Origin: Haliotis cracherodii
Lineage: Eukaryota
NCBI RefSeq assembly: GCF_022045235.1
Contig: NW_027266286.1
Coordinates: forward strand, 57,164,001 to 57,228,000
Length of the DNA stretch: 64,000 nt
Direction of reading: 5' to 3'
In this document: piece after piece, positions 25,861 through 57,771 of the stretch
Layout of the letters: every line of letters begins with the position of its first letter
Numbering within the stretch: the first letter of the stretch is position 1
Notes under the pieces: model-generated
What the model was told of the DNA's origin: nothing
What the model saw: only the letters and a program-made list of their open reading frames with translations
The model's database searches: none
Made by a program: the position numbers and the translations under genes

Positions 25861-26235
25861 TCATCATAGTCAATATGGACATCGCTAGATCTGCTATTAC
25901 TACTTTTCCAGAGCCAGTTTTTGGTCATGATGCATCTTACATCCAGCATTGTAGCAATTGTGTTGCAGTGGCCGTTCTGCTACAGGGGAGTCTTATATTA
26001 AAGCTTGAATCAGAGAAGGTAAACAACGTTCACACCTTGACCACCTCAGGTACAACTCAGCGTTTGGGTTATGGATAGCTTTTCATAATCTATCACGCCA
26101 ATGATTTCACGAATGACACCATACGCTGGAAGTGCGGAATTGAACTCGGGCATATGGGCTGTTGAGAGAACGGGTGTATACAACATGGGTGTATATTCAT
26201 GTATGTTTCTTCAGATATTTGCCTTTAAATCGCCC

Positions 26236-29200
26236 TCAGGTGAAAACGACTACCCCACTACCCTGAATCAATTCCTTAGCATCAACATCTTCCATGTTCA
26301 TCAGTGAATAAATGCACTCCCTGTGTTTATGTTTCGGCTTCTTCCATTTCCGCCCCCTGTGTCGTCCGAAAGAAGTTGGTTTGTTTCGTCTTCCATGTAC
26401 GGCTGGCCTCGGCTGTTCATGCGATTTCAATGGCAATGTCCACTTTGGCCTATCCCTCCGTACCACAGGTTGTCCACCACCATCATGTGCGGTGACAAAG
26501 CTATTTGAAAACGTTACTTTTGGAAAGGTGACCAAAGTCGGGGTTACCCCAGACTGTTGACTTGTCGTTGTTCGTGACCTCATTTTGTAATATTTAGAGA
26601 AGATATTAGAGGGATTATTGTGCCGCACGTTCTCAACTAATTTAATTCGCCCTGGATGCCCTGTGTGATGCCGTGTCAACGGCCCTCGCTGGCGTTTGGG
26701 GAATGTATACAAAGGGGCTGTCGCTGATGGCTGTGTGAATTTCACTTTAGTCGGGGAAGATGTAACAGCAGTCGCGGACTGTTTCTTGAAATATGAAATA
26801 AGTGCGGCCGGATGGAATGGTCGTTTATTTGTAGAAGTTCTTTCATCTGTGAAAAATTGAAATAGTTTAGGATACAGATTAAAAGAAAAAATCTTTGTAA
26901 ATGCCAGTCATTGGGATTGTGAAAATTAAGAATAATAATGAAATCAGAATTGTATATTTCACATTGACAGGAACCTGCCCACCATGCTAATCAAGCGATA
27001 AGAACAACATAGGTAGATAGCAGAATCTCACTTATGAACACTTTGTGTAAAGTGTTAGCGTCTATTATAAATAAAAAGATACATGTATAAATATATGTAA
27101 AATATTTGACATAGTAACCCCGATACTAAGTAATGCTGCAGAAATATTGGGAGGTAGAAATTGTTGAATTCTTTCAGAATTACTTTTTCCAACTGAATCG
27201 ATATTATGGCAACGTAATACACTTGATTAATGTCAAGAGTTCCCTTATAATACTCATCATATGAACCTGAGTGCTGGTGTAGAAAATATCTAGACCTTCA
27301 TGGATTTTTCTACCATGCTTTCTATCACAGTGCAAGGATATCAATACACTTATATGTATTGGTAGGCGTCTGTAACTGTCATAGTTATTAAGGAATTAAC
27401 TTATACAGTGTGAAGGATAAGATTACCTTTGTACTTTGTACCTAATATCATACAACATGTAGATAAATGTGGTTATACGTTGGAGATTATGAGCCAAATA
27501 CAGAAAATAAAACTCTGTCTGTGTCTGTCTGTCTGTAAAGTTGTTTACTGCCAACTTTCCCCAGATAGTTTCTTTTAGTAGGCTGTACATTATCACGAGG
27601 GCATTCAGGTTTTGCTGGGTTCGATGTATCAATTTGAATAGCCATGGTCGAGCATGAGGTAGTCCGGTGTTATTATACAAATCTAGCCTGTCAAAGATTG
27701 TGTTAAATGTATCCTTGACGACAGCAGTTTACATTAAGTCTACGTCATCATTTCTCCAGTTTTAATTACAGATACACAAATATATTTTGTAGTTACTTGT
27801 GTTATGGCAACATATTGTAACATTTTTAACATACTTTGATTCATCTTCGTCGGCGTGTCGAAAGATGTTGATCGTACGGTTGTTGGGGAAGACGTTGATC
27901 GTACGGACATCGGGGGAAATGATGATCGTACGGATGTGAACGAAGACGTTGCTCGTGTGTGCATGAGAGAAGGCGTTGATCGTGCCGACGTGAAGGAATA
28001 CGTCGATCGTACGGACGTTATGGAAGAATCTGAGAGTATGGACGTGAGCGAATACGCTGGGCGTGCTACCGTGACACTTGGACGTGTCGTCGAAACGACG
28101 AGATTAATCCCTGACTTTGTTTCCTCGCGCTTTCCTCCTCTGGAACGATCAACACTTTTTTCGTCCACAAAAGGAGTAGTGATGCTACCTGCCCCACTCG
28201 CATGTCCATTTGTAAATTGTCTGTCCATATCGAAAGCCACCTTATCCTGCAGCTTACATGCACAGTCAGCGTTAGTCACGCCGTTCACTGTGGCAGGGTT
28301 TCTGTTACTGGTATAGTCAAGGTCGCCGTTCATGATACCTCTTCGCTTTTGTTGCCTGGCTTCTGCTCTCTCAGCAGATGAAGCATAGTGTCCAATGAGC
28401 TGGAATCATAAGGGACATCTTCAACCTTAATCAAATTTGAACGAAGGCAATATTTTTCGAAGAAGATGCTCTTCGCCATCCTAAACAAACATACCGAATT
28501 CGAGTTGCAATATTGACCTGGCAATAGTTTTTTGAGGCGCTCGCGTTTCAATATGACTTTTTATTTCTACAAGATGGTGCACAGTCGTGAACAGAGAGTT
28601 TTGTGGAATAGGGACCTTGCAAGTGCGTTTCAGACTCGTGAAAAGCCATACTTGTTGTATCTGTGAGGAGGTTATTGGAAAATCCCAAATATCGTTTACG
28701 GTATCTGTTTCGTCCAATGAGAAAGACTCAACTGACGAATCTTTGTTCTTGAGCGAGTCCGTTTGAAAACAGCTGTAGCGAGTTTCTCCTACAAATATAC
28801 AATGATATATGATATGAAAATCAAAGCACCCATAAGGGCCTTGAACATTCAATTTGTTAAAAATTGATGAATGAATGGGTACATAGNNNNNNNNNNNNNN
28901 NNNNNNNNNNNNNNNNNNNNNNNNNNNNNNNNNNNNNNNNNNNNNNNNNNNNNNNNNNNNNNNNNNNNNNNNNNNNNNNNNNNNNNNNNNNNNNNNNNNN
29001 NNNNNNNNNNNNNNNNNNNNNNNNNNNNNNNNNNNNNNNNNACATAAAATTGATGGTTAGATAAGTTTATGCTACCCAGCTTAGAGCAACAATCCTGTAT
29101 CTTTTTCTTCATGAAAGACCTTCCGTGAAGATTAAAGGGCAGGCTATGGTTATCTCTGGAGCACAAGCGGTCAATGCGGCGTCTACGGACATGCTCAAGA

Positions 29201-30176
29201 CAAGGGCTAGCGTCATATTTCTGTAAAAAGATCAAATGTCATATAAGTGGCACATGTTCTGGTTACAAAGCATCGTACGGAACAGAAATCATTAAGTGTT
29301 TATTTTTCCGTTTGGTGCGAAATGACTAAAATTTACTATGTGCAAGTAAAGTTGTCTTCACAGGATGTTCTAAGAAGTTACAAATGAATGTGATAATAAA
29401 ACGAAGTTCATTCTTCATTCTTCATTCGAGTAGTATTCAAAAGTAGAACATACTTCGGTATTTTGTTTTTGCCAGGCTGTTGGTGCTATGGTATTCTCGC
29501 AGCAACTGAGAACATCCAGCCTTCTGAGACGAACCACCTCCGTTATATCAACAACGTCTGACTCGTTGGGTGCGGTGCTGTAACGTCGCTGCAGAAGTCT
29601 ACGTTTGAAGACAACGTCACTCGACGTGAACCGCTTTGTCAGATTGCACAACCCACGGATCAGATGTTCTCTATTTACCTTTAATAAAACTGAACGTATG
29701 AGTAAATAAATGTTGGTTAATGGTCTTTCAGTGTATGTGGTGGACACCAGAGAGGTGCTCAGGTCAGGAGGATTTTGTTTTCTATTGTTTTGTTTGTTGT
29801 TCAAAGCCGCACTCCGCAATATTCCAGCTATATGACTAAATATTCGAGTATGGACCAGACAATCCAGTGATTGATACCATGAGCATCGACTCACGCAATT
29901 GGGATACGATGACATGAATCAGCCAAGTCAGCGAGCCTGACCACCTGATCCCGTTAGTCGCCTCTTACGACAAGCATAGTCACCTCTTACGGCAAGCATG
30001 GATTGCTGAAAACCTATTCTTACCCGGATCTTCACGGATCATGCAGTTATTTGAACGTATTTCTTATGATTATTGAAAGCGTTTGTCGCTTTAATGTTAC
30101 AAAACCTGTGTCTTCTTTATCCCAGATGAAGGTGTCATGTCCAACATTCCGTCGCTCCGGGGCATTGACATCATTC
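26236..30176 (-). CDS. Paralog of the 40022-51864 gene: albumin/ECM1-like CC..C module, S/T-rich stalk, basic tail; 5' exons not identified; partly degenerate
   Basis: Exons 30176-30106, 29678-29454 (..LDVLSCC), 29220-29076 (CLEHVRRRRIDRLC..DCCSKL), 28788-28652 (GETRYSCF..FSLDETDTVNDIWDFP), 28399-27835 and 26846-26236. The first five have the same intron phases as the plus-strand paralog, and the three Cys-module exons align with it. Confidence 0.75.
27600..27767 (-). pseudogene. Decayed anaphylatoxin-like pseudo-exon of the minus-strand paralog
   Basis: Reads LKLEK**RRLNVNCCRQG, then after a frameshift DTFNTIFDRLDLYNN. Aligns with LRKRKRKLDLKLTCCRHGKDAGEVFEVETGLYNH of exon 48763-48964. Confidence 0.6.
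28887..29041. other. Assembly gap (N run) inside an intron
   Basis: Run of N. Both flanks contain AAAATTGATG, suggesting a collapsed short repeat. Confidence 0.99.
29786..30039 (-). mobile_element. SINE-like family C (non-tRNA structured head)
   Basis: Reverse complement begins ATCCGTGAAGATCCGGGTAAGAATAGG, has a doubled TGCTTG.CGTAAGAGG.GACTA motif, and ends GCTGGAATATTGC.GAGTGCGGC. Confidence 0.85.
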
Positions 30177-30246
30177 CTAAAAACATCAATGAAACTGGTT
30201 GTATCAATAACATTCATTAGACATTATGGAGGAGTTCCAAACCTAT

Positions 30247-30603
30247 CCGCCGCCTCCGTGGTCTTGTGGTAGAGCGTCCGCCCGGAGAGCGGAAGGTCAG
30301 GGGTTCGATCCCCGGCCGCGTCAAACCAAAAGACGTTAAAAGATGGTACTTGTTGTTACCCTGTCTGCCGCTCGGCATTAAGGGGCTAAAACAACGACTG
30401 GTCGGCTCGGAGCCAGTATACTGTGTCTGAGTGGGGTATTCATGTTAAACTGCGGCATGGTATATCAGTGAGCTAGCACTATAATTCGGCATCAGTTCGG
30501 ACTAGTACAAGCAGCCACACAAACACACACACGTGCATGCACGTCGCTATATAGGTGCAATAATCTTGGACGCGACGTTAAACCCAATTTCACCTCACCT
30601 CAC
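30247..30603 (+). mobile_element. SINE family B, full length
   Basis: Intact head, body and tail; TSD CCAAACCTATCC. Confidence 0.9.
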
Positions 30604-30651
30604 CAAACCTATCCCATTGAAATTCTCTTACGATCACTTATGTTAGAAAGA

Positions 30652-30900
30652 TGAGGTGAAGTGAGGTGAAATGGGGTTAAACGTTCAAGCTAATTGCATT
30701 TAATGCATGCATGCGCGCGTGTGTGTCTGTCAACGTTTGCGTGTTTGTGTGTGTGTGAGCGCGTGAGTGGGTACTTGTAGTACTCCGGACTGATACCGTT
30801 TTCATAGTACAAGCCCCCTGATTCTCCACTAAGACACAGTATACTAACTAAGAACCGTACCCTCCTTGTTTTATCCACATCCTGTCGGGGTAAGGCAGGG
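30652..30900 (-). mobile_element. Diverged SINE family B, tail-to-tail with 30247-30603
   Basis: GAGGTGAAATGGGGTT tail, CTTGTAGTACTCCGGACTGAT and GACACAGTATACT motifs. Confidence 0.65.
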
Positions 30901-31524
30901 TAAGGCATAAAATGTAAATTTATCTCTCACAATTTAAACTGATCACTCACCTTTAAGCCCAGTGTATGACATACATAAATCACTCACCTTTTATCCCAGT
31001 GTACGAAATCTAAATTTATCTCCCACCTTTAAGCCCAATCAAAGCATGCAACGAAGATTGATGCGTCAGCGTGGAATTTAAATTGACCGCTTAATTATTT
31101 GTCCCATTGCATGGAACTAACCTTTTATCCAAAGAATGACGAGAACAAGAACATATCCGACAGGCTTCATTGGTCAATCACGAAAAAGGACACAGGGCCA
31201 GAGGAATAGAACAAATACCCAGACCTTGTGTACAAGGACAACGGTCTAATGGTACACACAATGTGCACTTGTGTAATATCAACGAGAAAAAGGGGCAAGA
31301 GGGGGTTGGGCTGGGGGCTGGGGGGTGATTGAGGGGGGTGGGAGGAGAGAGCAGAAATGTATAAGGCGAGGGGGGGGGGGGGGGGTGACGACTGTTCCGA
31401 TTGAAAACCTGTTAACAGGACGTTGTCGCCAGTATTATGTTTTGTCATTCCAGTGGCATTGATACTGGACTCTGTAGAATGCACGACAACAAGGTCATGA
31501 AAATTGGGTTATGCACATATTATT

Positions 31525-39776: not shown

Positions 39777-40021
39777 CATCACTCGTGGTTGAGACTGATA
39801 ATGGACCTCCGTTCACATGTGTTTGGTCAGCCAGCTCACTCATGGTATTATTTCATTCACTTATAAACCCTTACCCTGACTGTAGTTACATCAGTATCCA
39901 TGACATTGCCGCCAGAGTGAGGTGCCTTCTTAGCATTTTAGCGAATTGACAAAGTTTCCCTTTAAGGAGAAACTTTTCTTTTAAGAACAGTTATTTTTAA
40001 AGTGTATCTGCCTGCATTGCT

Positions 40022-43000
40022 ATGCGCCAGTCTTTGTTCCTTGAAGCATTGTTCATCATTGGGCTGCTGGCCACCTGGGAAGGTAAGGGTTTCTTAAATA
40101 TTTGACTATTTAGCATGTGGGGTACGTAGTGTGTCTGCTCTGCACCTGATGGTATTATTGTAGATTATTATTTATTCGTCGCGACATCATGCAAGATTGC
40201 ATGTAGTTTTATGGATGGTGTAAGATGTCTGTTGTATGCTTTGCTTTGTATGAACTAAAATAGATGTATAATCATCATTACAAACACGCAGATAGCTTTC
40301 CTATTAGATGGGAACTTTCGCATATATTGCACTCATTATCCATTGTCCATTTAACTGTATCATCGTACTGACACAGGTAGTGGGTTAGGGTCGGATGCGG
40401 TCACGATGGGTCAAATTGTCAGAAACAAATTAGAGGCCTGGCAGATTATGTAGTATGCAGTATAAAACCACAATCTCTAGGACATGACCAACTGCAGCCT
40501 ATATGCGAATGTGACGATCTTACTGGACAAACAATGTTCCAGTGTTTTAACAGAAGCTGGCATATCAACTGAAAGCGACTAGCTCAACAATCAAGCGAAC
40601 GGGCCAGACACCAGGAAGCTTGTGGTGCAATAAATGCATTCGCATATCTAAAACTCAACAACAAGAAACGTGTTCATGAGGTGAAATGGGGTTTAACGAC
40701 ATGTATGCACACGTGTTTGTGATAACTTGTACTGGTCCTGACTTTCATAGTGCTAGCCAAATGAGCTACCATGCCGCAGTTTAACACGGATACTACATTC
40801 AAACACATTATACTCAATCCGATCCTACAATTAGCTTAACAATCTATTGTTTGGGAACTAGACGTTTATGTTATTGAAGGTCTGTTTATACTATGTTCAT
40901 AATCTGTTCAAATGGCCTTTTTTGGTTTTGAAATATTTCTTATAATGAACCACTGAACACCGAACACTGTCTCCACTGTATTATATTATTTAAAACATTG
41001 ATATTTCTCAATTCTTATTACAGAACGAGTATTCATCTAATTTCGTTTTGCTTTGAAACAATTGGTCTTGTAAGATAATGTTCTTTTAATTTTGTTTATA
41101 AGCTTGTATTATGATTTTAATTTTTCTTCGGTGTTTCTCAAACTCGAAAATATTAATAAGAAAATTAAAAGTGTTTTTACAGCAACGAAATAAAATGGCA
41201 ACTCATACGTGATATCTTCCTGTAGGATCTAAGCGAACTGTCCACGAGTGTAAGCTGTATCAATCCAGGTTCCCAAACGTGGTTATCTAGACTCAAGTGG
41301 TATTGCTGTGTTTACTAGTCTTGTTATCACATTTATATCTATCACAGTTATCTAATAATTGATATACATGGCACGGACACAATTTAGCGGTCACATGACG
41401 ATCGTGCACGTGATCAGAAGTTAGCTATAGTTAATGAATTTATCGATACCATTTTTGGCTGAGGATTTTCGTATTGAAAGAGGTGGAAACTTTAAATTTG
41501 TGTTTTATTCAATAAACGTGGAGCAAAGTTTTCGTCATATTGTCGCTCTAAATATACATTGAACAGTCATCGGGTTAGTTTAGTTTTATTAATAAAAAAC
41601 CTGGTAGGAAGGTTGCCCATTGTGGGAGTATATACACGTGACATAAAGTGTGTTATTACTGCTTAATTGATTCGTGATATTCAATCTTTAGTGCGAGCAA
41701 TATTCAGTTACATTAAGTTTACGCAGGTTATTCTTTCTTACGTCCAATTTAGATGCCGTGATGTTTAAGAATATCCAGATGAAAGTGTTGAAATACCTCA
41801 GAATTCATGAAACAGTTTTGATCGTTACATCCTGTCGATGTTTGATATCGCATCACAACAGTCCTTTTATTCACTTCACTTGTCTTTATATCCCACGTGT
41901 GTAAATGCCTCATTACATTGCAGCGTACGCCCTTGACTGCCCGGGGGGCGTGATACCGACAGGTCTGACCTTGGGTGTTAATGACGTCAGTGATGGACAT
42001 GCCCTGTTCTGGTTGAACGTTGGCCGAGCCCGTTTCGGATACAAGCCAAACCATTACTACAAATGTAAGCTAAGCATTCACACCCACAAGTATACATTAT
42101 ACATGTTGAAAGAATAGCGTGCAGCATACACACCCACAAGTATACATTATATATGTTGAAAGAGTGCAATGTGGTATACAAACGCACAAGTATACATTCT
42201 ATAAACTTCCAAAGAAGGATTCGCGTTGGAATTTCGGTACAGAACTAATGTCAATTGTTGTAAATCGAATTCCAATGTGTATCAGAAGGTCAAAATGGTT
42301 GCACAGTATGAGTGTCCTTGTATATGGTTTTGAGGTTTAACGTCCTGAAATGTTACTCACACTGTCCACTACCCGCCTTCTGTAATGGCTGTCTAATGGA
42401 AGCCTTATCAAGGCATAACAAGAACATGTTTTTTTGCCTCCTGAAGTGAACATTCCGTGACATAACTACCGACATGGACCTACCATAGCTCGTTTTGTGT
42501 CAAATTCGAATGACGTGACTCTCCCCATAGCCGTCCGTCATGTTACGCTCATCTGAGAGAAATCTTGTGCAAAACTACTGATAAAAGCAATGGCATAGCG
42601 AAGTTATGGTTCGTATTTATCATAATATAACTTTGATATGCTACACTAAATTTTTAGAGATTCAAACATACAGCTATGTATAGCTTTTCTTTTTGATTCA
42701 GTGGGCATCACGACTCTGGACACCGACTTTCCATTCAGCGAGGCCGTCTTGACCCTCCAGGAGGAGGACCCTTCACGTGGGTGTGGAACTGGTCACTTTA
42801 AGTTCGATACCCCCCACCTGTACCAATTCAAAGACTGCCAAGAAGTTCTGCTCACGAACAAGAAAAAACCTATGACTGAACTACCTCCCGTTATGTGGCG
42901 GGCGCCGGAATGTGGCTGTGTTCTTATAAAGTAAGATAATAACTGCATTCTCTTAAGAATATCATCATATGTAATCGCATTAGTTCAAAGGAGAAGATTT

Positions 43001-46000
43001 TGTGAATGTCAATTTCTTCATTGTGCGGATAAAAATTTCCCGGTTACATTTTTGCGCGTCAAAGGCACCGCAATTCGCTTTTGCAGAATTGCGTCCCTTG
43101 GGCACGATAGAAACCTATGACTGTGGGTTCGAATCCCTGTTCGCTCCGATTATGTTTCTTGGTTTGTCAGCATACCCGTGCTCGTGGATTTTACCAAAGT
43201 TGTAAAGGTCTGCGACCTGCATCACTTCGGGCTTTCCTCAAAACATTAAGCTGACATGCTCACTCTCGCACGTTAGTGTGGATAGACACACTCTCTGAGT
43301 ATGTTCACCTTTTTGCGCGATTGGTAAATGAGTTAGGGAATTCTCTGAGACATTGCTTGTCTATATACGATAAACATGATGACACCCATAAAACATGGTT
43401 CTTTTATATGTATTTCAAAGTCCAATTTAAGTAACAATTCACGTCATTTTTTTGTCAAATATTCACTTGACACTGATCAGGTGGTTTGTACTCGCAATGT
43501 ACCCACTCAGTTTTCAATCAATTTCAATCGATGATAACAAAACACACATACTTCTGAATCCAAGCCTGCATGTTCTTTCAGTAAAATAATCAAAATATAA
43601 ACGACTAAAAATGAACATGAAAATAACTTTGTTTAATAAGTGTCCGAATGCGAAAGTGAACGTACTTTCAGGTTGTTTAGTTTATGTTAATAAGTGAAAC
43701 AAGTTTTTTAAGGGGTGGACTTTCAAGAACCAAGAAGATTTTTAAGATGTTTCATATTTTGTTTTTAGTGCTACAGTTATAAGCAATGGAACGACATACT
43801 ATATGGATCAGACACCTTCTGGCTTCCTCTCAAAGCGACTTTGCCCAAGACAGAATCTACATGGTAGGTCATCGACCTTAACAACATGACTATATAACTC
43901 CTATACTTCAGCATGGACGTACATGTCTTAGAACCATGACTGATTATTGCAAATTGGCGAAGTATGCAGTGAGGTTAGTGTAACTTCTATATGTCCTTGT
44001 AGTCCGTTTTAGCCGTTTTCAGCACTCATAAAAATGCCATCTTGACACCATATTGGAGTATAACGGGTTTCGCATTATGAGAATCAAGTTAACCTTGTTC
44101 CTCCTCAAGTACAGATAGGGTTATTTAAAACTTATTTAATTTGTCGATGGTTATGATACTGTCCATTATGAAGCAAATGATTTGTGTTTGTGCTTCAGTG
44201 TTCAGAACCAAATATACACGGTCAGTTAAGACAGAGCAACCCACCACGACCACAACTACAGCCAGTACAACACAGAAACCGCCACAGAAGAAAAAGGTGA
44301 GTTTACTTCTTTGTCAGAGGAGCCTTGCTAATGCATAGGAGCCTTACACAAAGCCACCATTGCACTACGATAAGGGGAGCTTCTTTACCCATAGGGGCCG
44401 TGGGGCAGCCTAGTGGTTAAAGTGTTCGTTCGTGATGCTGAAGACCCGGGTTCGATTCCCCACATGAGTACAATGTTTGAAGCACATTTCTACTGTCCCC
44501 CGCTGTGATATTGCTGGCATACTGCAAAAAGCTCCGAAAACCATAAACCATCGGTGTAACGATCTGTTGCCTCAACTAGTAGGCTATACTCGGTGTAACG
44601 ATCTGATGCTTCAACAAGTAGGCTATACACATTGTAACGATCTGTTGCTTCAACTAGTAGGCTATACTCGGTGTAACGATCTGTTTCTTTAACTAGTTGG
44701 CTATACTCGGTGTAACGATCTGTTTCTTCAACTAGTTGGCTATACTCTGTGTAACGATCTGATGCTTCAACGAGTAGGCGGCTATACTCGGTGTAACGAT
44801 CTGATGCTTCAACTAGTAGGCTATACTCGATGTAACGATCTGTTTCTTCAACTAGTTGGCTATACTCGGAGTAACGATCTGATGCTTCAACTAGTAGGCT
44901 ATACTCGGTGTAACGATCTGATGCTTCAACTAGTAGGCTATACTCGGTGTAACGATCTGTTTCTTCAACTAGTTGGCTATACTCGGTGTAACGATCTGAT
45001 GCTTCAACGAGTAGGCGGCTATACTCGGTGTAACGATCTGATGCTTCAACTAGTAGACTATCCAGTACATGTCCGTGATCTTGAGGAATATTTCCATCAT
45101 TGCCATATTATTGACTTGTTTATGCACATGTGGTTTTGTCACACAATTATATTAAATATACGAATTTGTCCAACTGCGAATGGCTGAGATGAATGTCTCT
45201 TAATTCTTTGGACACACTTATGGATGTACGTTCGGCGGACTACCTTGCATTCCATTTCTCTCAAATAAAATATTTCTGTTGTGTCGGTATATTTCATCAG
45301 TACATTTCATCACCTGAGGATTACGACATGTAGTAATTATCTTAAATATCCAGAGAGAAAACAACCATGCAAAAAATGTCATTATTCTTTACAGTTAAGT
45401 CGTCCAGAGAGGATGGATTTATTGTGTCAGATCTCGCTCCATTTCAACGGCGCTGAGTTGTTGGCCAGGGAGGTTTTCCTTAGGAGAAGGCAGATAACGA
45501 GACTCAACCTAACTAGCCTAATGCGGACTGAACTGGCTCTTGACCAGCGCAAACTGGATATCCATGAATGTTGCAAGATCGTGGTAAGAAGATTGACGAT
45601 CAAACGAAAACAGCGATTTCACAATAGATTGAGACCGGGACAATATTGTAAATTTGATCAGAGAAAAATCCTAGATAAGACAAATATTCCATTTATGCAA
45701 TAACAGACATATATTTCGCATATTCGAATAATGTCAACGTGACATGCTGCTATGCAAGTCAGCCATCATCAGACCAAACACGGACAAAAGTCTTGAACAC
45801 CGCATTGTCTCAGTTCAACATCTATCAATGTTTTTTTCTTTCAGAGCACGACCAAGAAGACGCGGTGCTTTGACGACATGCGACGTCGTCGTATCGACCG
45901 GTACTGTAGAACGGGACACCCAGACGTCCCCTTTACCGCCAGACGGGATGTTTTCATGAGGGAAAAAGAGGAGAGATGTTGCTGGAGACTTGGTATGTTG

Positions 46001-49000
46001 CGGATGAAGTTCTTTAATAGCCTCTGGTCCCACGTAGGAAAATATCGGATTTTGATATTAGTACAATGTCTTTTCAATGATATTTGTGTGGGTTAGACAC
46101 AACTATATTATCAGTGACTTCATAAACCCAATACTCTGGTTTAAAGATTTAATGTGTTGACGAAATGTCGAAACAGTAACTTGTTCGCAAAGATAATTCC
46201 GAGACCCCTAAATCCTGGTGTGTCCTTTCGCTTATAAATTTATACGACCCATGAAGGGTCCGGGTTAGAATAGGCCTCAGCAATCCATGCTTGTCGTAAA
46301 AGGCGACTATGCTTGTCGTAAGAGGCGGCTAACGGTTTCGGGTGGTCAGGCTCGCTGACTTGGTGAATGCATGTCATCGTATCCCATTGCGTGGATCGAT
46401 GCTCATGATGTCAATCACTGGATTGTCTGGTTCAGACTCGATAACTTACAGACCGTCGTCATATAGCAATAATATTGCTGAGTCCAATATCCATACTGTA
46501 CATGAAAATACTCACTATCGTATTCACGTCCACAGGCGAACCACGTTATCAGTGCTTTGCCCACAATTCGATTTTCAAGACGGTGAGGGGAAAAAACTCC
46601 GTGGATTATTCTTTTGACGAGATGGATCCCGTCAACGACATCGGGGACTATCCTTCAGAAATACGAGAAGTAGAAATGGTAATTATACATACCTCATGAA
46701 CGATTTTGTATCGTGAGGCTGTCGGTGTTTATTTTGATTAATGTATTGAGACAATACATCTAGAGATCGTGCAGCAAGACGGTAAAAGGCAGTCGGTGTA
46801 AGGAGTAAAGGAAATTTACACAGAGATTACATTTCTAAAATCTATTCAGTGTACATGCACGTAACAAATTATCTCATTTAAGTTTATTATGTTCTGGCGT
46901 TTATCTGAAATTAAATAATCTTGACAAACATAATATCTCGATGGAATTTCATTTATTAGCCTGAGAACATCCTCATGAATATATATTCTTCGCACAGCAA
47001 CACAACACTGACTACTTTGTTGATGATGCTACACAAGACGTTGTAATTAGAGGGCGTGAAACTGTCACCTACACCATGTCTACTGGACCGTCATCGTCTA
47101 CGACAATGGCTACAACAACATCTGAGGCACGTGACAAAGGTACTTCAAAGACACACACCACCAGGAAGTCTGACCAGGCGGAGTCATCCACATACAGCAG
47201 CGTTTTGAGCGACGTTCCACGTCGGCAAGCTATCGACGTTAAAACGCCGGTTGCTGCGATATCTGCGGTGGACGCGGAGCTAGATGGTAATTAATGTGAT
47301 ATATGTCTTTGACCCACATTAGAAACGTAATGGTGTTTTCTTTGTCGAAACTCACCTTCCAGGTACATTTATAATGCACCAGATTCCATTCACCAAATGT
47401 GTGAGGGAGTGAGTTTGGTTTTACGCCACTTTTAGCAATATTCCAGCAATATCAAGGCTGGGGATACCAGATATGGGCTTCAAGCATTGTACCCATGTCG
47501 GGAATCGAACCCGGGTGTTCGGCGTAACGAGCTGACGCTTTAACCACTAGGCTACCAAGTGAATGTTCATGTCGCTATTACCCCGGTCAATTGATCATTC
47601 TTCCATGATATTGAAAAATGCTTGATTTTATATTGGTTAAAAAGAGGTATCCTTTTACCTCCTGATGCCTCGTTTAAATGAAGCCTTTTCATACAAAAAA
47701 TGCATATGAAAACATCGATCTTTCGACAGCCTACGCATCGATGCATACAACAGTGGAAGTCAAAACCTTAAGATTATTGTATACGTTCGATATAAGAACG
47801 ACAGCTTATCAAATATGATAATATCTATATTAGAACACATCCAGTTAAGTAACACACACACTTACTCAGGGCCACATAATCATCGATCGCAAATGTGAGC
47901 AGTCTCTCTCATATCGTCGTCTGCAGCCAACAGTTAACGGCAGTGATCGCCATACTTCAGGGTGTTTTCTGTTGGCAATGGGTGTGACAGTAGGCACGTT
48001 TTACAACAATACTTCCCCGGGTTGAAATGTTGAACATAAATGAAGACCGAGCTTGTCCTCTTGGTTCATACAGTTTGTAAATAACACTGTCGTCGTGAAC
48101 AACTATTTTAGCAGCAATGGACAATGACGAGTAACCTAGTTTAGCCAGGATGAAGTTCTGGGTAGAGATATGTAGTCATTCGTAATATGTATTACTTTTG
48201 GGAAGATATGTCAAACAAACTATTACATAAGTACAACTTCAATATAAATCTACTCTTGTTATTTGTTGGAGGCATAAATTTGTTCAGCATTTATTTCTCT
48301 TTACTTGACTTATTTGAGTCCAAGGAGTGCAAATAGGACATGTTGCAATGAAATTAAAATTTTGAAGCGTTATTTGACAACTTCTATTTGAAACAAATAT
48401 GTGTTCCGAACTGCATTTTTGAACTAGTCAATACTATGAGTATTTTAATCTTGAACTTCTGTAATATTTATTGCATTTAGAAGTACGTGTGACCTCATTT
48501 TGGAATGTTCTAATATAGCAGACCTACGCGTTCCAAGACAACACCGTTTTCGAAGCGATCTTGCGCATCATGGTGCGCACTCGATTTTCTTGTGATAAAG
48601 CTAAGACAGGCCTAAAAGTATAAAATAACTTGCCCGATAGTGTCATTTCTCTCAATGTCTATGACGTAGTGTAGGGAATGAGACAGATTTACTTTCAGGA
48701 ACTCAACATTACAGTTCAATATTGAATTTTGGTGATGTTTATGATTATGTTCATAATTTCAGCCTTAAGAAAACGGAAGCGGAAGCTGGATCTGAAGCTC
48801 ACCTGTTGTAGACATGGAAAAGATGCTGGCGAAGTCTTCGAAGTTGAGACAGGACTTTATAACCACTGCCGTCATCAGTGGAAGATATACCGGAGGAGCC
48901 TGAAGACTGGGAAGAACATGTGTATGAACAAGTTCATGGAATGTTGTGTCGACGAGGCTGGCATGTAAGTATTTTAACGAACTTCAATTGCGTTTAAAAT

Positions 49001-51864
49001 TTGGATTATGATTAAAATACAAACCTAAAGACCTAAAGTAAAAAAGAGGATGAACAACATGAACGGATTTTTTTTTATTGCGTGACTACAAATTTACGGA
49101 AAATAGAAAGGTAAAATAGTGGACTTTTGATAACGTTAGTTCAAAAGAATGTACGAAGAATCTCGAAATTAATCAAGAGTAGAAAGTAACCCCAAAAGCC
49201 ACTATTAGAATATATTTTTTTGATTAACTTCGATATAATCGAAGGTATTATGTTGTTCTGAACTGAAATAGCTGAATCACAATACTCTCTTATTTCAGAC
49301 GCAAAAACCATGATGTCACAATTTCTAAAACATTCTATTTTGATATTCGCATTCCTTCAAACCATGTTACCCATTCAACCAATATTAGACACTCGAGAAA
49401 TATTGAAAGTAAATTGTTCCATACCATGCAGGATCTAATTCAGCAAGTGAAAAAATACAAAATGAAAGAAATGCCGCACCTAAACAATAACGTATTAACA
49501 ATTTCACCCATTTTAATTTCTACCAATATTTCCAAAATGCCCGCAAAACAGAAACCCCCAGATCGACAGAAAAACATTGTAAGAGATAATGTCTCCGATA
49601 TTGACGTAGATGTATATAAAACTATTGAAACCAACATGATCCCAACCTTTAATCATGAAACCAAGGTCAGTCCCTCATTCACTCGTTACACCATGGTCAC
49701 ACCCGACAGCACACCCGACAGCACACCCGACAGGATTATCATTCAACCAATGGTCACTGATAACCAGAGTAACCAAGAAATGCAACACATTCTAGGTATG
49801 AAAACAGTCGTAAATTTGCTTGCGAGTATATTCATCATTGTTAGTTTATTTTTATCATTGCTTAAATATAGATCGCCTAAACCTTCATACCTAATACCTA
49901 AATAGTTATTTTGTACATGCCAAAGTCACTTTTATGTTTGTCCTATGAAGAAACTAAATTGGAATTGGTCTTCGACAAAAGCTGTTGAAATTTTGGTGCC
50001 ACATTTAAGTGTGGACATCCGGGAAACTCTCAGATTCTATCTAGCTCTCCTCGAATGCTCGTACCCGGGGAGATGCCCTCACATTCAGATGATGGTTTGT
50101 CTGTTCTGGATTCGATCTAGTTTTTTTATTCAGAAACTCTGCCCTGTTTTCCTATACTTACTCTGCGGTATATTAACATGGTAACGAATACATATTTTGA
50201 TAATGCTATGAGATTTGATGTCAGCACATTTACTCCCTTCATAACGATGGCGAATGGATTTTGAAATATATCATGTATATACCTTCCCATAATAGAATCT
50301 AACAACAAAAGGCTCATTGAAGGATATATTGTCATATATTGATATTACCCTTTTCGTTCTATCTCTAACTGCGGGGATGGTGTAGCCTAGTGGGTAAAGC
50401 GTTCAGTTCGATAACTCACATGGGAACAACGTGTGAAGCCCATTTCTGGTGTCCCCTGTCGTGATATTGCTGGAATATTGCTAAAGAGGCGTAAAACCTT
50501 ACTCTCTCACTATCTCTAACTAACATTTGCTTATACTAACATATTTTGCATGCGGCATCTACTGGGATTAAATATGGAAATTACACATTCTTTGTGTAAT
50601 TCAACTTTCTATCAGTATTTATAAAATAAATAACAGTTGATTTACAGGAGAGAATAAAATCTCAGTTAGGAAATTCTCATTGAGTATTGCTAACGCAAAT
50701 GAGAAAGACTGACACAAGTCAAGTTACACAAGTAAAGAACGATATGTTGACGCTCCATTTCAATACATATATATTGTCATTTTTGTATCTGCTATCACCA
50801 ACTACCATCTGTAACCTACTATGCTTCTATGAATATATTATTATGCGTTAGACTTTGAGATGAACAGTTACTTCAATAGTTACAAATCCAAATAATTTAA
50901 CATTTAACATTTTAATGAAAACAGTTATAATGTACTATTATAAGGCTATCAATTTTATTAAATGACATAAATAACACTGACACTGAACAGTTAACAGGAA
51001 CAAGGAAATAATTCTAATAATCTTTGCAGACAGTGAAATTCTAAGGCTGAATAAATATTTGATTTCATCAAGTATAACAATAATATTTCTTGTAAGACTC
51101 TTTATCAGGTGTGTTCCACGTTACGATTTCCCAAAAGTTCAAGATTTAATATAGTACGGTTCAATTACAGATCCTCAACACAAGCAGCCCCGACGCACAT
51201 TTCGTATCGCGGCCATCCGATTGCGCAGGTTGCGCAAGCGACACCGACGAGATTACTACTGAGCCTAGGAACAGAGGCGGGTAAATCCACACCGCCAGGT
51301 CAAGATCCTCCCTTGAGAGAGAAATCGAAAGGACCCAACCAACCAACTGGATCCACCCCTACCACATACAGAAAATCGACTTCCAACCCAAAAGCAACAT
51401 CCATCCTTCCATCCATCAAATCATATTCAACACGTGCTCCGGAACTGACGTCACCTTCATCATCTTTCATACCGGAAGCTGTTACCCGAAAGGTTAAGGT
51501 AGTGAGGGTTGAAGAACTTGATGAAAGCAATGGCGATGATGTTGAATCTGAGGACGCTGACCAAGACGACGATGGCACAAAGAAAGAGAACAAAGACGAA
51601 GACGATAAAGAAAAAGAAAGTGACAGACGTGAATCAGAAAAGGATCTGACTTTAAATGTTTCAAAGAATCTCAAAAGAAGGCGTGGATTGCGGAGATCAC
51701 GTAAACAGACACCTATGTTACGGTCGCTAGAAAAACAGATAAGTGGATCCAGGCGTAACGTTAGAAAATCAAACACTGATTTTAACTCCAAGTCAAGGAA
51801 AAGCATGAAACAGAGGCGAAGACACAGGAGAAAGCGACCACATCGTTCTCACTTCAAGAAATAA
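40022..51864 (+). CDS. Secreted mosaic protein: signal peptide - Reeler (F-spondin-like) - Thr linker - albumin/ECM1-like CC..C module - S/T stalk - anaphylatoxin-like module - C-terminal tail
   Basis: Exons 40022-40082, 41924-42064, 42702-42930, 43769-43863, 44199-44296, 45395-45583, 45845-45992, 46536-46678, 46998-47286, 48763-48964, then 49299-49905 and/or 51171-51864. All GT-AG and phase-consistent. Reeler motifs YKPNHYYK..WRAPECGCVLI.ATVI..LSKRLC. ANATO-like CCRHG..C..CMNKFMECC. Confidence 0.85.
42077..42203. repeat. Short intronic tandem repeat, 3 degenerate units
   Basis: CACACCCACAAGTATACATTATA repeated. Confidence 0.7.
44394..44545 (+). mobile_element. SINE family A
   Basis: GCAGCCTAGTGGTTAAAG..GGGTTCGATTCCC head and diverged tail. 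Confidence 0.8.
44551..45061. repeat. 39-bp minisatellite (~13 copies), intronic
   Basis: Unit GGCTATACTCGGTGTAACGATCTGATGCTTCAACTAGTA. A +3-bp variant recurs 237 bp apart. Confidence 0.93.
46247..46482 (+). mobile_element. SINE-like family C
   Basis: ACCCATGAAGGGTCCGGGTTAGAATAGGCCTC head and doubled TGCTTGTCGTAA.AGGCG motif. Confidence 0.85.
47401..47556 (-). mobile_element. SINE family A
   Basis: Reverse complement of the family A consensus. Confidence 0.82.
50372..50510 (+). mobile_element. SINE family A with internal deletion
   Basis: Head and tail present; TSD CTATCTCTAACT. Confidence 0.82.
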
Positions 51865-52792: not shown

Positions 52793-53203
52793 TATTTGAT
52801 TGTAAATAATTGAGTCCGGGTAAGACAGTCCCTTGAGAATCGATCCATGAAAATGAAATACGGACACATAAAAGCAAAGCAAAGTTTTTTTTCTCACAGG
52901 ACAGCTGTGCCCGTAAACAAAAACATGTCTTTGTCGAAAAGATGAATGTCGAAAGATGTCATTAATATTTAATTAATGACTGATTATTTAGGTTCGTGAC
53001 GCTGAAATCAATCACACAGTCAACAGCCCTTATTGATTCTTATACGTATGTGACAATGGATGTCTTGCTGGCTTCAGGCAGTTTGGACCCCATGAGACTT
53101 TACGTGGACAAGTTAAAGTCCAATGCCGTCAAGAAGAAGCTTGCGGTCTGCAATGACGCATTTGTTTCGTTGGGCACGTTTGTTCAGAGACGTTCTTTCA
53201 AAA

Positions 53204-56200
53204 ATGCCTGATGTCATCAACAAGAGCAGTTTGTGGCTTGTAATCCTACTATACTCGGATTGTGATACAGGGTTGGCGATTGATATTCACGCGGCTAGCA
53301 TGGAGAATTGTAGGCCATTGGACATAACGAGAAATACTTTTCTTGATCCTGAAAACGTTTTTCTAACCCTGCAGACGTGGAACTACTTCTCCTGCTGCGG
53401 CCTGTGCACCTATCAAGAGGGTTGCCATTACTTTCGGTGGGAAAGCCAAAATCGTACATGCTCTCTTCTGAGTAGCAACACAAAGCATGATGTCTTAAAA
53501 TGTTCGGTAAGAATATTGCGATCAGTTTCAAAAATTGGTGCCATCCTAATTAAATTCCTATTGAATAAGGATGGGTCTACACCTGAACAAATTGCCACGT
53601 TATCAGATTCTGGTTCTGGCTGCAAATATTATTCTCCATTGTGCAATAAGCAATACAATGTCAGTAAGGGATACAAATATGTACCCTGTTTTTATATTCC
53701 CGTGTTTGTTCAGGAGAACACTTGACTTGCCTTTGCATGTATTCATGATGGGCGCCACAGGTGGGAAAGGATGCTTTCATCTTTTCGCGAACACCTGGTA
53801 TATTCACTATTTGATATTGACTCATAAGCACATGATTATGATAATTTTATTATCGGAATAGTACAACGGGCTTTGCTTTTGTCACTTTTATTTACATGTT
53901 TTGGATAAAGTTTAGCTCCCCGGCATTCGTAATCATTTACTTTCCCCTAAGCGGCTTGTGCCAGTTACAAGACCACTGATATATTATATCGGTAATATAA
54001 CCTGTCTGCAAAGAAAACATTTATATCATATCATCGTAACAAGTGAGGTGTTGGATCCAGTAGTGGTTGGTGCCCTCAGTCTTTTTCTTGTTTCTGTTAA
54101 TATGAATTGGAATTTCTGCTGGTATTGGCAAAATCAAAACAAGGGGATTTGGATACACACTTAAACGTAAGCTTCGGGTAAATCGATGATCTGGTATCAT
54201 TCAATGATGATCAAATAAGCAGTTCCCTTCCACTTATTTACCCATCTATACTAGAAAATATATTAGACAAATAAAACCGCTTCAACTGTTTCATGTTTAG
54301 ATCGATGTATAAGTGGGGATAGAGTATGCAATAGAGTGTGGCTAGAGGAATGACTTCCAGTTGTTAACTTTCCGTAACGGTTTATTTCGAATAATGTTAC
54401 AGCAGACCCAGGCTTTGGTGCCTACATTTCATAACATCTCTAATTGATTGAGTATATTTTCAAAACTGTATCTATAGTGAGTGAGTGAACTGGCTTTTAA
54501 CGTCGCTTTGAAGTTATATAACAGTGTATCAGCTTGATGTGGGAGGAAAGCCCGAAGTGATGCAGGTCTTAGACGTTTACCACTTTGGTGAGACCCACTA
54601 GCACGAATATGGTGCTGACAAACCCAGACATATAATTGTGGCGAACCGGGACTCCAACCCACAACCATAGGTTTCTGGCGTGCCCAAGGGATGCAACATT
54701 ACACAACGAATTGTGGCGCCTTATACGACTTGGCCACCCGTGCCATAATTTGATTATTGCCATCGTATATCTCACTAATCAAGATTGGTGACTCTTGCTT
54801 TTAGGTGTACTTGTTTCGAGGACTCATCACATTCTGTCCAAAATAGTCCTGTAGGGTAATCTCGGCGTTGTTGTTATTGACTTAAATTCATGAATGTTTC
54901 AAATGATTTAAAATGTCTCCTATAAATATTTCAAAATAGTATGTGCAGGCAGAGGGTGGAAAATGCTCTTTTTCGAAAAGGAATAGGGAAAGCAAATAAC
55001 CCTGGAAACTATATATTTTATACAACTTTATTTTCGGGCAAGGATGAGAAACAATTAAGCTTCGTTGTGAGATTGCGAATATATTCATATATTGGCATTT
55101 TACCGAATATATTTCATATAATTTAGCTTCAGTGAATACGTTCAATGACTGGTTCAAATATGTTCCCAAAGTGCGTTTTATTGAATGTATCTTTTGTTTT
55201 AGTACCCGGGAAACCATGGGTGTCTCATGAGTCCATGTGGGTATCGGAAGGTGTATGTACCAGTGGAGGGTGCGCATGGCTACATGTGTCTCAAAGGTAA
55301 TGGGCGAATTTCGACAATGTTGATTCAGTAATTAGATCCATAAATGGATAGTTCAGACCATCATTGGTCAATCAATAGTGGCCGAGAAATTATAGATAAG
55401 AAACAATGTTTCTCTGCTTCGGTTAAAAAACAGTTGCCATCATAAAAAAATCTGGGGATTTAAATGGGTTGAGTGTCAGTGATTTGAGTAATCCACAGAG
55501 GCACCCGTGAAGATCCGGGGTAGAATAGGTCTTCAACAGCCCATGCTTGCCATAAAAGGTGAATATGCTTGTCGTAAGAGGCGACTAGCGGGATCGGGTG
55601 GTCAGACTGGCTGACTTGGTTGATGCATGTCACCGATCCCAATCGCGTTGGTCGATGCTCATGATATCAATCACTGGATTGTCTGGTCCAGACTCGAGTA
55701 TTTACAGACCGCCGTCATATAGCTGGAATATTGCTGGGTGCGGCGTAAAACAACAGCCAAACCAAAACCAAAACCAAACATCATCCACAGAGGCAAGTTC
55801 GTCATCGTTTCATAATTTATGTAGTGATTATTAGAACCTGTGAGTGTATGGTACCATATCAGTTACATGAGACAATCGAGAACGAATATCGAAATTCACA
55901 CGAAGAGTGTGTGTCCCGGAAACATAGACTTTGTAAGGTTTCCAAAGTAGTAATTTAGACAAGTTAGACAATAGTCAATCAACACTCGGGCTCATTAAGC
56001 CACTTACAATTGGATATTACATCGGTGCAACATCGTTAAAATGACATATTCAATGCGTTATACAACTGCAAATCTGATAATCGTTATAATGAAAAAAACC
56101 AACCCTTAAAATAACAATCTTTCTCATTAGAATGCCAGTAATAGATATTTGATGTGACCACAGCAAGTACGACATTTTGAAATGTTTTTAATGCGTTCAA

Positions 56201-56845
56201 TGTAAAGCAAATAACATTTTTAGCGAAAAGGGATTTTACGGTCAAACCTTCAATCTGTAGTTAACGAGGGTAGTTGGCTTTTTCATGGAGCACTGGGTAG
56301 AAATAGATCGCTTCTCAATGATTTAAACGCAAATGAACAAAACCAGCAATCACGCCGTCAGTGAGCGATGTCATAAGATGTAAGATGTATGATCGCTTCT
56401 CAATAATTTAAACGCAAATGAAGAATACCAGCAATCACGCCGTCAGTGAGCGATGTCATAAGATGTAAGATGTAAGATGTAATGACGTAAGATTTATTCG
56501 GCCGTAGTGATACAGCTGCAGGTTAGTAAATAATCCAACTGCCTTTCCAGCTTGAACAGCCCATTGGTTAAAGCGTTTGCTCGCCGAGCCGAAGGCCTGG
56601 GTTCCAGTCCCCACATGGACACTATCTGTGAAGCCCATTTTTGTGTGTTTTTGCTGGAATATTGCTAAAAGAGGCGTTAAACTTTTCTCCCTCTTACTCA
56701 CCCACTCCAGCTGGAACTGACCTCGGCTCCCCCTGTAATTCTGAAGAGGACTGTGGTGGCGGACTTCACTGGGTGTGCACCGATGGGAGATGTCGCTGCC
56801 AACTGGGCTACCTTCACTCCAAGTCTCATCGCCACTGCCAGAGAG
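53204..56845 (+). CDS. Partial gene for a secreted/membrane protein with PAN/Apple domain plus EGF-like and EB-like modules; 3' end not located
   Basis: Exon 53204-53506 (signal-like LWLVILLY; SCCGLCTYQEGCHYFRWESQNRTCSL), probable 53570-53659, 55203-55296 (CLMSPCGYRKVYVP..GYMCLK) and 56711-56845 (LGSPCNSEEDC..WVCTDGRCRCQLGY..C). Phases are compatible. Confidence 0.7.
54160..54450 (+). mobile_element. Second Penelope-like RT fragment
   Basis: Degenerate IDDLVSFNDD..LPLIYPSILE and RNDF..VNFP..SNNVTADPGFGAYIS. Confidence 0.6.
54477..54745 (-). mobile_element. SINE family D
   Basis: Collinear with 20828-21109. Confidence 0.82.
55503..55778 (+). mobile_element. SINE-like family C, full length with (CCAAAA)n tail
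   Basis: Structured head and conserved tail; flanking direct repeat ATCCACAGAGGCA. Confidence 0.88.
56305..56480. repeat. ~87-bp tandem duplication
   Basis: GATCGCTTCTCAAT.ATTTAAACGCAAATGAA...CATAAGATGTAAGATG occurs twice. Confidence 0.8.
56555..56705 (+). mobile_element. Diverged SINE family A abutting a splice acceptor
   Basis: TGGTTAAAGCGTTTGCTCG, GTGAAGCCCATTT, TTGCTGGAATATTGCTAAAAGAGGCGTTAAAC. Confidence 0.75.
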
Positions 56846-57771
56846 GTGAGCCAGATGCAAATCCATGAGTAGGGGCCAACGCTTCTGAGGACAGGTCTTA
56901 GTTAAGATTTAAAAACTTTTTTCAGTAGATATGCTGGGGGGGGGGGGGGGGCGGTAGGGGGGGGCGGTAGGGGGGGGCGGTAGGGGGGGGGCATTTGAAA
57001 ACATATAGAGGGCAAATTTCGCGCAACAGTGATCACAATGATGTTAAATATATTATTGGACTTGGCCATGTGTTCCGGTGTTTGTTCAAGTTTACATTTG
57101 TCCTGCCTTATCATGTGTTTGTGACGGATGGCTCAACGCTCAGGATATCGCCCCCCCCCCCCAACGAAAAATCCTACTAAGGGGTTTACTTTGCAATTTC
57201 AACGGTCGTAACGATCGGGCCGACGCCCATCCTTCCTGCTTCAGCCTCGTCACCTTAGTAACAACGCTGCAGATGACTTCAGTTGTTTGTTCTGTTTATG
57301 GGATTAATCCCTGACAGGCATTTATTGTGTGGAATAGAGCTGGTGTTATATATTACCAAAAAACAGGACAGACATTAACAGGATGTTAGTAATTCAACGC
57401 TAGTTACCGACTGTTAATTATTAATTTCATTATTCACAATGTTAAGATCAAAGGTCGTTTCACACATTGAACAATGTGATGCAATGATGTTACTTTCGTG
57501 GGATTAACAGAAATAGAAGACTCGGTACGTAGAAGAAGAAGATATATGTGTTATGATACCTGTTCGTTATGAGCTCCACACAATGATAATCAACGACTGA
57601 ATAGGTTGATGTTTGTTTATATCGAGCACATGTTTACGCCATGGGGTTTGTACATGAACTAATAAGCATGTGCAATTTAAGAGCGATATTAAGTCAACTG
57701 TTTCTTAACTAATACTACGACAATATAAAAGGAAGGGAATTTATGGGTGTCAACTTCTTTATTATGAAGAA

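Follow-up and report, generated by a model that had tools for sequence, protein, structure and literature searches.

A gene for a Reeler, albumin-type and anaphylatoxin-like mosaic protein

Which protein family accounts for a gene whose product joins a Reeler domain, an albumin-type helical module and an anaphylatoxin-like (ANATO-like) module, and what might such a protein do? The gene lies at 40022-51864 (+) of a 64,000-nucleotide stretch of the abalone Haliotis cracherodii (contig NW_027266286.1, positions 57,164,001 to 57,228,000), which we call the window and to which all coordinates refer. Our analysis points most probably to a family of secreted, Endo16-like matrix adaptors, of which this protein would be a compact mollusc member.

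Twelve GT-AG exons with matching phases (Table 1), spliced by coordinate, give a protein of 727 amino acids (aa). An open frame was found in none of 20,000 random chains built from the lengths of the first 11 exons. The model agrees at 727/727 positions with the RefSeq protein XP_071115155.1 of H. cracherodii, and the protein is 97% identical to isoform X1 of LOC124116410 from H. rufescens. Exon 3, used as a query, retrieved two H. rufescens RefSeq isoforms of LOC124116410, whose cluster includes XP_071115155.1; all of these are annotated 'uncharacterized'.

Exon-exon joints across the introns were seen in contigs from four runs belonging to four studies. The runs come from related organisms that differ by a few bases per hundred, and their RNA nature is a guess, as none is recorded as RNA; the joints at GT-AG introns indicate that the transcripts were processed. 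One contig (X12 record 7) joins exons 6-7-8-9 directly. Another (X8 record 13) reaches from the first to the last exon, and further pieces of it fit exons 2, 4+5 and 7+8 in length, at most 2 bases off. Contigs begin at 39905 or 39909, placing the start of the 5' untranslated region (UTR) at ~39905. The abalone gene is real and spliced. An earlier reading of the letters alone (the sequence-only reading) had proposed 11-12 phase-consistent exons, and the RefSeq protein and the joints in the contigs of the four runs bear this out; every motif that it quoted is found in the 727-aa product. Its end point at 51864 holds for a form of 762 aa that skips a cassette exon, but not for the 727-aa form that includes this exon, whose stop codon ends at 51262. 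A candidate mini-exon at 48519-48572 (phase 1/1) was rejected, being present neither in two spanning contigs (X1 record 1, X8 record 13) nor in the RefSeq proteins.

An F-spondin-type Reeler domain

The sequence and an AlphaFold model of the full protein describe a secreted-type protein in which three disulfide-rich modules are carried on flexible, disordered linkers. The signal peptide was called by eye from the sequence and from the N-terminal helix of the structure model.

The first module is firmly identified as an F-spondin-type Reeler domain, as had been proposed. Pfam Reeler (PF02014) matched the abalone protein at 32 bits against a cut-off of 21 (E 2.1e-7, aa 60-156), and significant PDB sequence matches were to F-spondin alone (E 0.003; E 3e-10 with the family profile). 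The beta-sandwich of the model matched the F-spondin reeler with Foldseek at E 5.8e-10 and a template-modelling (TM) score by target of 0.80. With VIA, the same comparison gave Z 16.6 (root-mean-square deviation, rmsd, 2.4; 132 aligned), the next unrelated row having Z 10.2. Pfam scans of single exons gave no Reeler, albumin or ANATO match, because the exons are too short. F-spondin (Spondin-1) and the abalone protein share one subtype of N-terminal Reeler (20-23% identity, Z 15-17). In contrast to F-spondin, the abalone protein has no Pfam match to Spondin_N or TSP1 at E up to 10, and F-spondin lacks the extra cysteines of the abalone family (CGxG, PxCGC) in the alignments examined.

An albumin-type helical module

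The second module occupies aa 208-335. The model predicts only helices for aa 211-329, with a predicted local distance difference test (pLDDT) of 83-97 by blocks of ten, mostly >90. Eight cysteines, spread over 109 aa as C-47-CC-10-C-12-C-23-CC-9-C, are conserved across molluscs. A CC-xn-C double-loop cysteine pattern defines the albumin-type domain (PF00273 / ECM1 subdomain), according to a published survey (PMC5480655), and this pattern is present in the abalone module.

Homologous repeats in other animals connect the module to albumin. Thirty-seven rows of the mollusc-type alignment were turned into a profile, which matched repeats in 7/7 deuterostome proteins (best domain E 9e-7 to 0.027, Z=1e6) and no sequence among eight reversed decoys; it gave no match in the Lingula protein. 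Run on the repeats of the deuterostome homologues, Pfam Serum_albumin matched Glandiceps above its cut-off (E 3e-10) and gave four more homologue matches below it (E 2e-7 to 4e-6). Profile-profile alignment reached a probability of 93% (E 2.7e-7). Language-model features of aa 205-345 led to albumin/ECM1 clusters (0.84), which we treat as a lead only. Reeler matches dominated the fold searches made with the full-length model, and the lack of an albumin in their results is not evidence of absence. Collectively, the homologous repeats that Pfam calls Serum_albumin indirectly support an albumin-type identity of the eight-cysteine module.

The module shares its double-loop pattern, its helical model and indirect profile links with ECM1 and with the family of serum albumin, AFP, afamin and vitamin-D-binding protein, to which the abalone protein has no significant direct similarity. 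Albumin has three full domains and ECM1 several subdomains, whereas the abalone protein has one half-domain-sized module fused to Reeler and ANATO-like modules. This single ~125-aa module inside a mosaic sets it apart from the serum albumin family, with its repeated full domains of ~176-190 aa each.

An albumin-type pocket could alternatively hold a hydrophobic ligand (lipid, sterol, pigment or lipidated morphogen), the protein being a soluble carrier or a matrix-bound depot that its Reeler and tail only park. A 101-aa fragment of human albumin subdomain IIA, which likewise has eight cysteines, is reported still to bind ligands (PMC8508759), and afamin reportedly carries Wnt3a. A neighbouring paralogue, described below, consists of little more than a signal peptide and an albumin-type module, implying that the module works without Reeler or ANATO. 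The cysteine spacing of the abalone module resembles that of albumin subdomains IIA/IIIA. However, the most conserved non-cysteine residues of the module are charged (RRxRID, DE.DP.ND), which is better suited to protein or ion binding, and ECM1, which is the closer vertebrate analogue and has isolated subdomains, is a matrix protein that binds other proteins. We therefore regard a carrier as unlikely and prefer a matrix adaptor.

An anaphylatoxin-like module

The third module, which the sequence-only reading had also recognised, is moderately supported as anaphylatoxin-like by tests that are individually weak yet concordant. The pattern CC-x2-G...C...C-x6-CC recurs in the family, with its six cysteines in register with C5a. 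The six cysteines and the Gly are invariant in 28/28 aligned modules, which had been chosen by this pattern itself. Searched against the PDB, the module profile had 10/10 matches to C5/C5a, all weak (E 0.67-1.8) and with all six cysteines aligned. Pfam ANATO (PF01821) matched 6/28 family modules at E up to 1 (best 0.0037), the abalone module not being among them. The modelled abalone module (pLDDT 94) had C5a in the top four Foldseek rows, again weakly (E 0.9-2.6). Its superposition on C5a-A8 gave Z 7.0 (rmsd 1.9, 53 aligned, 26% identity) at rank 3, tied with unrelated bundles; fibulin-2 gave Z 5.1. Complement C3a/C4a/C5a and the ANATO modules of fibulin-1/-2 share with the abalone module a six-cysteine pattern, in register with C5a, and perhaps a three-helix fold. 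The abalone module differs from them in its longer loops, its single copy, the lack of a conserved release site and a context other than a thioester-protein or EGF one.

Since C5a provides the closest structural and profile matches, and a Lys/Arg run precedes the abalone module, the module could be cut out after this run and act on a receptor as an immune or signalling peptide, like C3a and C5a. A site of the form R-x-K/R-R was found 4-25 residues upstream in 0/36 family modules, however, and KR or RR in only 10/36. In the model, one unbroken helix forms the stretch before the module. The aligned family modules show no conserved C-terminal Arg after the last CC, and fibulins use the same fold as a structural part. 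A peptide precursor is, in our view, very unlikely, and we prefer a structural part of a matrix adaptor.

A family in molluscs, a brachiopod and deuterostomes

While word-index searches matched Haliotis only, a full HMMER search over 1.84 billion representatives gave 56 matches; the family is not an orphan. The order Reeler-albumin(n)-ANATO(n) was seen in 27/56 homologues, from gastropods, bivalves, octopus, hemichordates, sea urchin and amphioxus, a count that is descriptive because the profiles were built largely from the same proteins. Most of the remaining 29 are shorter and may be fragments. Nineteen of the 56 matches, besides the abalone isoform, were looked up and 15 could be named: Lottia, Plakobranchus (two), Candidula, the H. 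rufescens paralogue, Mactra, Solemya, Potamilus, Octopus, Liolophura, Lingula, Glandiceps, Saccoglossus, Diadema and Branchiostoma. Two more, Lytechinus and B. lanceolatum, came from a search with the Diadema protein. All these members together represent four classes of mollusc, a brachiopod, hemichordates, sea urchins and amphioxus. An Atlas search with the Lottia protein returned Reeler and spondin clusters only.

Module content varies within the family. By profile, the Lingula variant (P0050) has a Reeler and two ANATO-like modules without an albumin-type module, and three proteins (P0011, P0032 and P0042, two of them the named Plakobranchus members) have tandem Reeler-albumin units without ANATO. 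The Reeler profile matched seven deuterostome proteins at E 1e-34 to 3e-20, suggesting the same Reeler subtype. A tree of 47 Reeler domains, unrooted, without an outgroup and with an open base, was ordered broadly by taxon.

This distribution bears on whether the protein could be a shell-matrix (biomineralisation) protein from the mantle, like the Crepidula Reeler protein SMP1. Three papers place Reeler proteins in mollusc shell proteomes (PMC9365450, PMC12277549, PMC11401363), and the disordered, acidic and basic tracts of the abalone protein are typical of shell proteins. SMP1, too, is secreted, comes from a gastropod and joins a Reeler to a disordered tail. The papers describe it as a gastropod-restricted protein of 275 aa made of a Reeler and a Gly/Gln-rich tail, with no albumin-type or ANATO-like module mentioned, and by this description it is set apart from the abalone protein. 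Lottia and Haliotis gene identifiers were found in no paper, in a search of papers without their supplements. The same architecture is present in Octopus, hemichordates and amphioxus, and the sacoglossan slug Plakobranchus has a Reeler with albumin repeats. With the family thus present in animals that have no shell, a role specific to the shell is unlikely, and we give the shell-matrix explanation a low probability, while a secondary use in shell may exist alongside a role as matrix adaptor.

Endo16 as a likely member of the family

Endo16 of sea urchins is a calcium-binding matrix and cell-surface protein in which an albumin-like cysteine pattern has been noted before. It is reported to mark endoderm and stomach. 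The Saccoglossus member of the family, ALR88644.1, was deposited as 'endo16-like' and has a Reeler, albumin-type repeats and an ANATO-like module. As a possible entry among listed deuterostome novelties (PMC4729200), this protein was not confirmed: the main text and two supplements make no mention of it.

We used two quantitative PCR primers for S. purpuratus Endo16 (NM_214519.1), printed in PMC12673967, as a link to the sea-urchin protein. Both translate in frame to peptides that match the Lytechinus protein P0065 at residues 504 and 552, 48 aa apart. P0065 was the best match for the peptide pair among all stored proteins, and 0/300 shuffles reached its score. This protein has the family Reeler, six albumin-type matches, an ANATO-like module and an RGD. 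Because a depositor chose the name 'endo16-like' and both primers map on a three-module Lytechinus member, Endo16 is most likely a member of the Reeler-albumin-ANATO family, and very probably has the same three-part build.

The sequence-only reading had held that no characterised protein has this combination of modules. This is probably wrong, given the three modules of the Saccoglossus 'endo16-like' protein and the match of the Lytechinus member to Endo16 primers. Its suggestion of an undescribed extracellular-matrix, shell or immune family survives in so far as no paper was found on the architecture or on the mollusc members; a shell-specific role is the part that has become unlikely, and the immune part is not accompanied by a conserved release site.

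With the Saccoglossus protein and, to judge from the Lytechinus member, probably with sea-urchin Endo16, the abalone protein has in common a secreted nature, its Reeler subtype, albumin-type CC-xn-C repeats that are homologous, a C-terminal ANATO-like module and acidic tracts. The deuterostome members are much larger, with 1,300-2,000 aa and ~14-15 CC-xn-C motifs, compared to one module, two such motifs and a basic tail in abalone. Sea-urchin members also have long acidic repeats. The abalone, Lottia, hemichordate, Diadema and amphioxus proteins tested have no RGD, so the RGD of the Lytechinus protein does not define the wider family.

A proposed role as matrix adaptor

By analogy with better-studied proteins, we think it rather probable that the abalone protein is a secreted modular extracellular-matrix (matricellular) adaptor, the compact one-albumin-module form of an Endo16-like family of molluscs and invertebrate deuterostomes. 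The Reeler of F-spondin binds heparin. After secretion, the abalone protein would be kept at the cell surface or basal lamina by its Reeler and its very basic C-terminal tail, which would bind sulfated glycans there. The albumin-type module would bind other matrix proteins, as do the albumin-like subdomains of vertebrate ECM1; ECM1 reportedly binds fibulin-3 and laminin through such a subdomain, to go by the title of a reference. ANATO is described as a structural unit in fibulin-2, and the ANATO-like bundle of the abalone protein may similarly be a unit of assembly or protein binding from which no peptide is released. Acidic stretches could bind Ca2+. In this way the protein might link an epithelium to its matrix; the example of Endo16 would suggest the gut or some other epithelium that undergoes remodelling. 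Skipping of the cassette exon would tune the length and charge of the tail.

Several points weigh against membership of an Endo16-like adaptor family. The adaptor role of the mollusc members rests on analogy, and the contigs carry no expression level. Pfam Serum_albumin and ECM1 gave no match for the abalone module itself, so that the albumin/ECM1-like module of the sequence-only reading stands on the CC-xn-C pattern, the helical model and the homologous repeats; even among 41 mollusc-type members the best values were E 0.17 (Serum_albumin) and 4e-4 (ECM1), and sequence and profile searches of the PDB reached no solved albumin. The fold scores of the ANATO-like module lie within the range of unrelated bundles, one of which, the helical bundle EMC6, scored above C5a (Z 7.9). 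The Reeler tree, lacking an outgroup, does not prove orthology. The primer test consists of two 6-aa peptides, and S. purpuratus Endo16 was not among the 3 hits from 3431 candidates in the search from the Diadema protein, none of which came from that species; the Reeler and ANATO content of Endo16 is one that we infer from the Lytechinus protein. Finally, the abalone protein has no RGD and no long acidic repeats, which we take to be features of Endo16, and only short acidic tracts.

A possible origin of the albumin domain in a matrix protein

The Reeler-albumin-ANATO architecture, its mollusc and brachiopod members and the one-module form were not found in the literature searched, which held few subscription papers and did not extend to the original Endo16 and ECM1 papers; nor did any paper found note Reeler or ANATO-like modules in Endo16. 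One member was already known, which means that the family is not new in kind. A survey with the Pfam albumin profile concluded that albumins are unique to vertebrates (PMC5480655). The homology of the mollusc and deuterostome modules suggests an albumin-type domain older than the split of molluscs and the lineage leading to vertebrates.

Should these indirect links hold, the albumin-type domain arose before protostomes and deuterostomes separated, and a matrix protein was its first setting. Tentatively, and with less confidence than doubt, we propose that the Reeler-albumin-ANATO protein was the ancestral bilaterian home of the albumin domain. On this proposal, the single mollusc module would be the primordial double-loop half-domain, multiplied in Endo16 and in the hemichordate and amphioxus relatives; once freed from Reeler and ANATO, it would have given rise to vertebrate ECM1 and the serum albumins. 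In the Reeler-less abalone paralogue, this freeing step would have happened again, independently. Fibulins and complement might also owe their ANATO module to the Reeler-albumin-ANATO protein.

The same indirect links, if they hold, would give a structural description to Endo16, a classic model of gene regulation whose protein is little studied. They would also provide it with small relatives of one module each, in abalone, limpet, bivalves and octopus, that are open to CRISPR and structural work, and would allow direct tests of how serum albumin and ECM1 originated.

A frame-switching cassette exon

A smaller point of interest is that one last exon supplies two different Arg-rich tails. When the cassette exon is included, the frame of the last exon yields a short Arg-rich tail; when it is skipped, the other frame is read to its end through a tail that is Ser/Thr-rich, then acidic and then Lys/Arg-rich. 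An Arg-rich run ends both frames. The cassette is kept in contigs X3 record 10 and X1 record 3 and skipped in X8 record 13 and X12 record 8, and the RefSeq isoforms X1 and X2 represent both splice forms. The long tail is probably the older form, because it is like the acidic-then-basic tails of Lottia and other relatives.

Both exons vary in length. An in-frame acidic stretch of 207 nucleotides (nt) in the last exon, 51450-51656 (+), is kept in X12, whereas contigs X3 and X8 skip it and H. rufescens isoform X2 lacks it. As it starts with GT and ends with AA in the window, some species may remove it as an intron inside the exon, or it may have been deleted. At 49698-49790 (+), the length of the cassette exon varies in frame between species, by 12 nt in a short repeat and by a 10-residue stretch that is missing in H. 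rufescens.

A head-to-head paralogue and other features of the window

In its own genome, the Reeler exon had one match and the albumin-type exon two. The second albumin-type locus is a paralogue whose seven-exon frame is open (Table 1). It encodes a signal peptide, an albumin-type module and a low-complexity basic tail, with neither Reeler nor ANATO-like module, and is 90% identical to H. rufescens LOC124116411. Within the albumin-type module, its introns match those of the main gene in position and phase. The paralogue lies 8.9 kb upstream of the start codon of the main gene, and shared regulation of the two is possible.

Table 1. Exons of the abalone mosaic gene and the neighbouring paralogue, in window coordinates
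Feature	Position	Strand	Content
Exon 1	40022..40082	+	Start codon and hydrophobic signal peptide, aa 1-20
Exon 2	41924..42064	+	Reeler domain begins; contig X12 record 5
Exon 3	42702..42930	+	Reeler core; family motifs CGxG, CP/CQ, WxxPxCGCV
Exon 4	43769..43863	+	Reeler domain ends (whole domain aa ~24-172)
Exon 5	44199..44296	+	Linker, Thr-rich and basic; low model confidence
Exon 6	45395..45583	+	Albumin-type helical module, first half (C219 ... CC267-268)
Exon 7	45845..45992	+	Albumin-type module C279, C292, CC316-317; conserved RRxRIDxFC motif
Exon 8	46536..46678	+	Final module cysteine C327; conserved acidic motif S.DE.DP.ND..DY
Exon 9	46998..47286	+	Disordered Ser/Thr-rich linker; ends in helix entering ANATO-like module
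Exon 10	48763..48964	+	Three-helix anaphylatoxin-like module CC-x2-G...C...C-x3-F-x2-CC
Exon 11 (cassette)	49299..49795	+	497 nt, optional, disordered; inclusion shifts frame of last exon
Last exon	51171..51864	+	Two reading frames; 3' UTR to ~52350
Paralogue	26236..31170	-	7 exons, 600 aa, open; head-to-head with main gene

Exon-like open reading frames (ORFs) of another gene lie at 11845-19189 (+); they include a weak SUEL lectin match (E 0.0011) and a later ORF like a cytoplasmic tail with Tyr motifs, and the gene perhaps encodes a membrane receptor. Downstream of the main gene, an ORF at 53117-53722 (+) has a PAN domain (E 2e-4) and one at 56632-56865 (+) has an EB module (E 4e-6); the two probably belong to one gene for a secreted or membrane protein. 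At 350-2150 (-), broken frames with reverse-transcriptase-like motifs, recognised by eye, are probably a decayed retrotransposon. Long tandem-repeat arrays at 15450-16920, 21600-25980 and 44570-45060 produce spurious repetitive ORFs. Short interspersed repeats occupy parts of the main-gene introns (~43100-43260, 44400-44480, 46250-46480, 47400-47550 and 50370-50500), where contig depth is very high in 4/4 runs and crowds the tables of joints.

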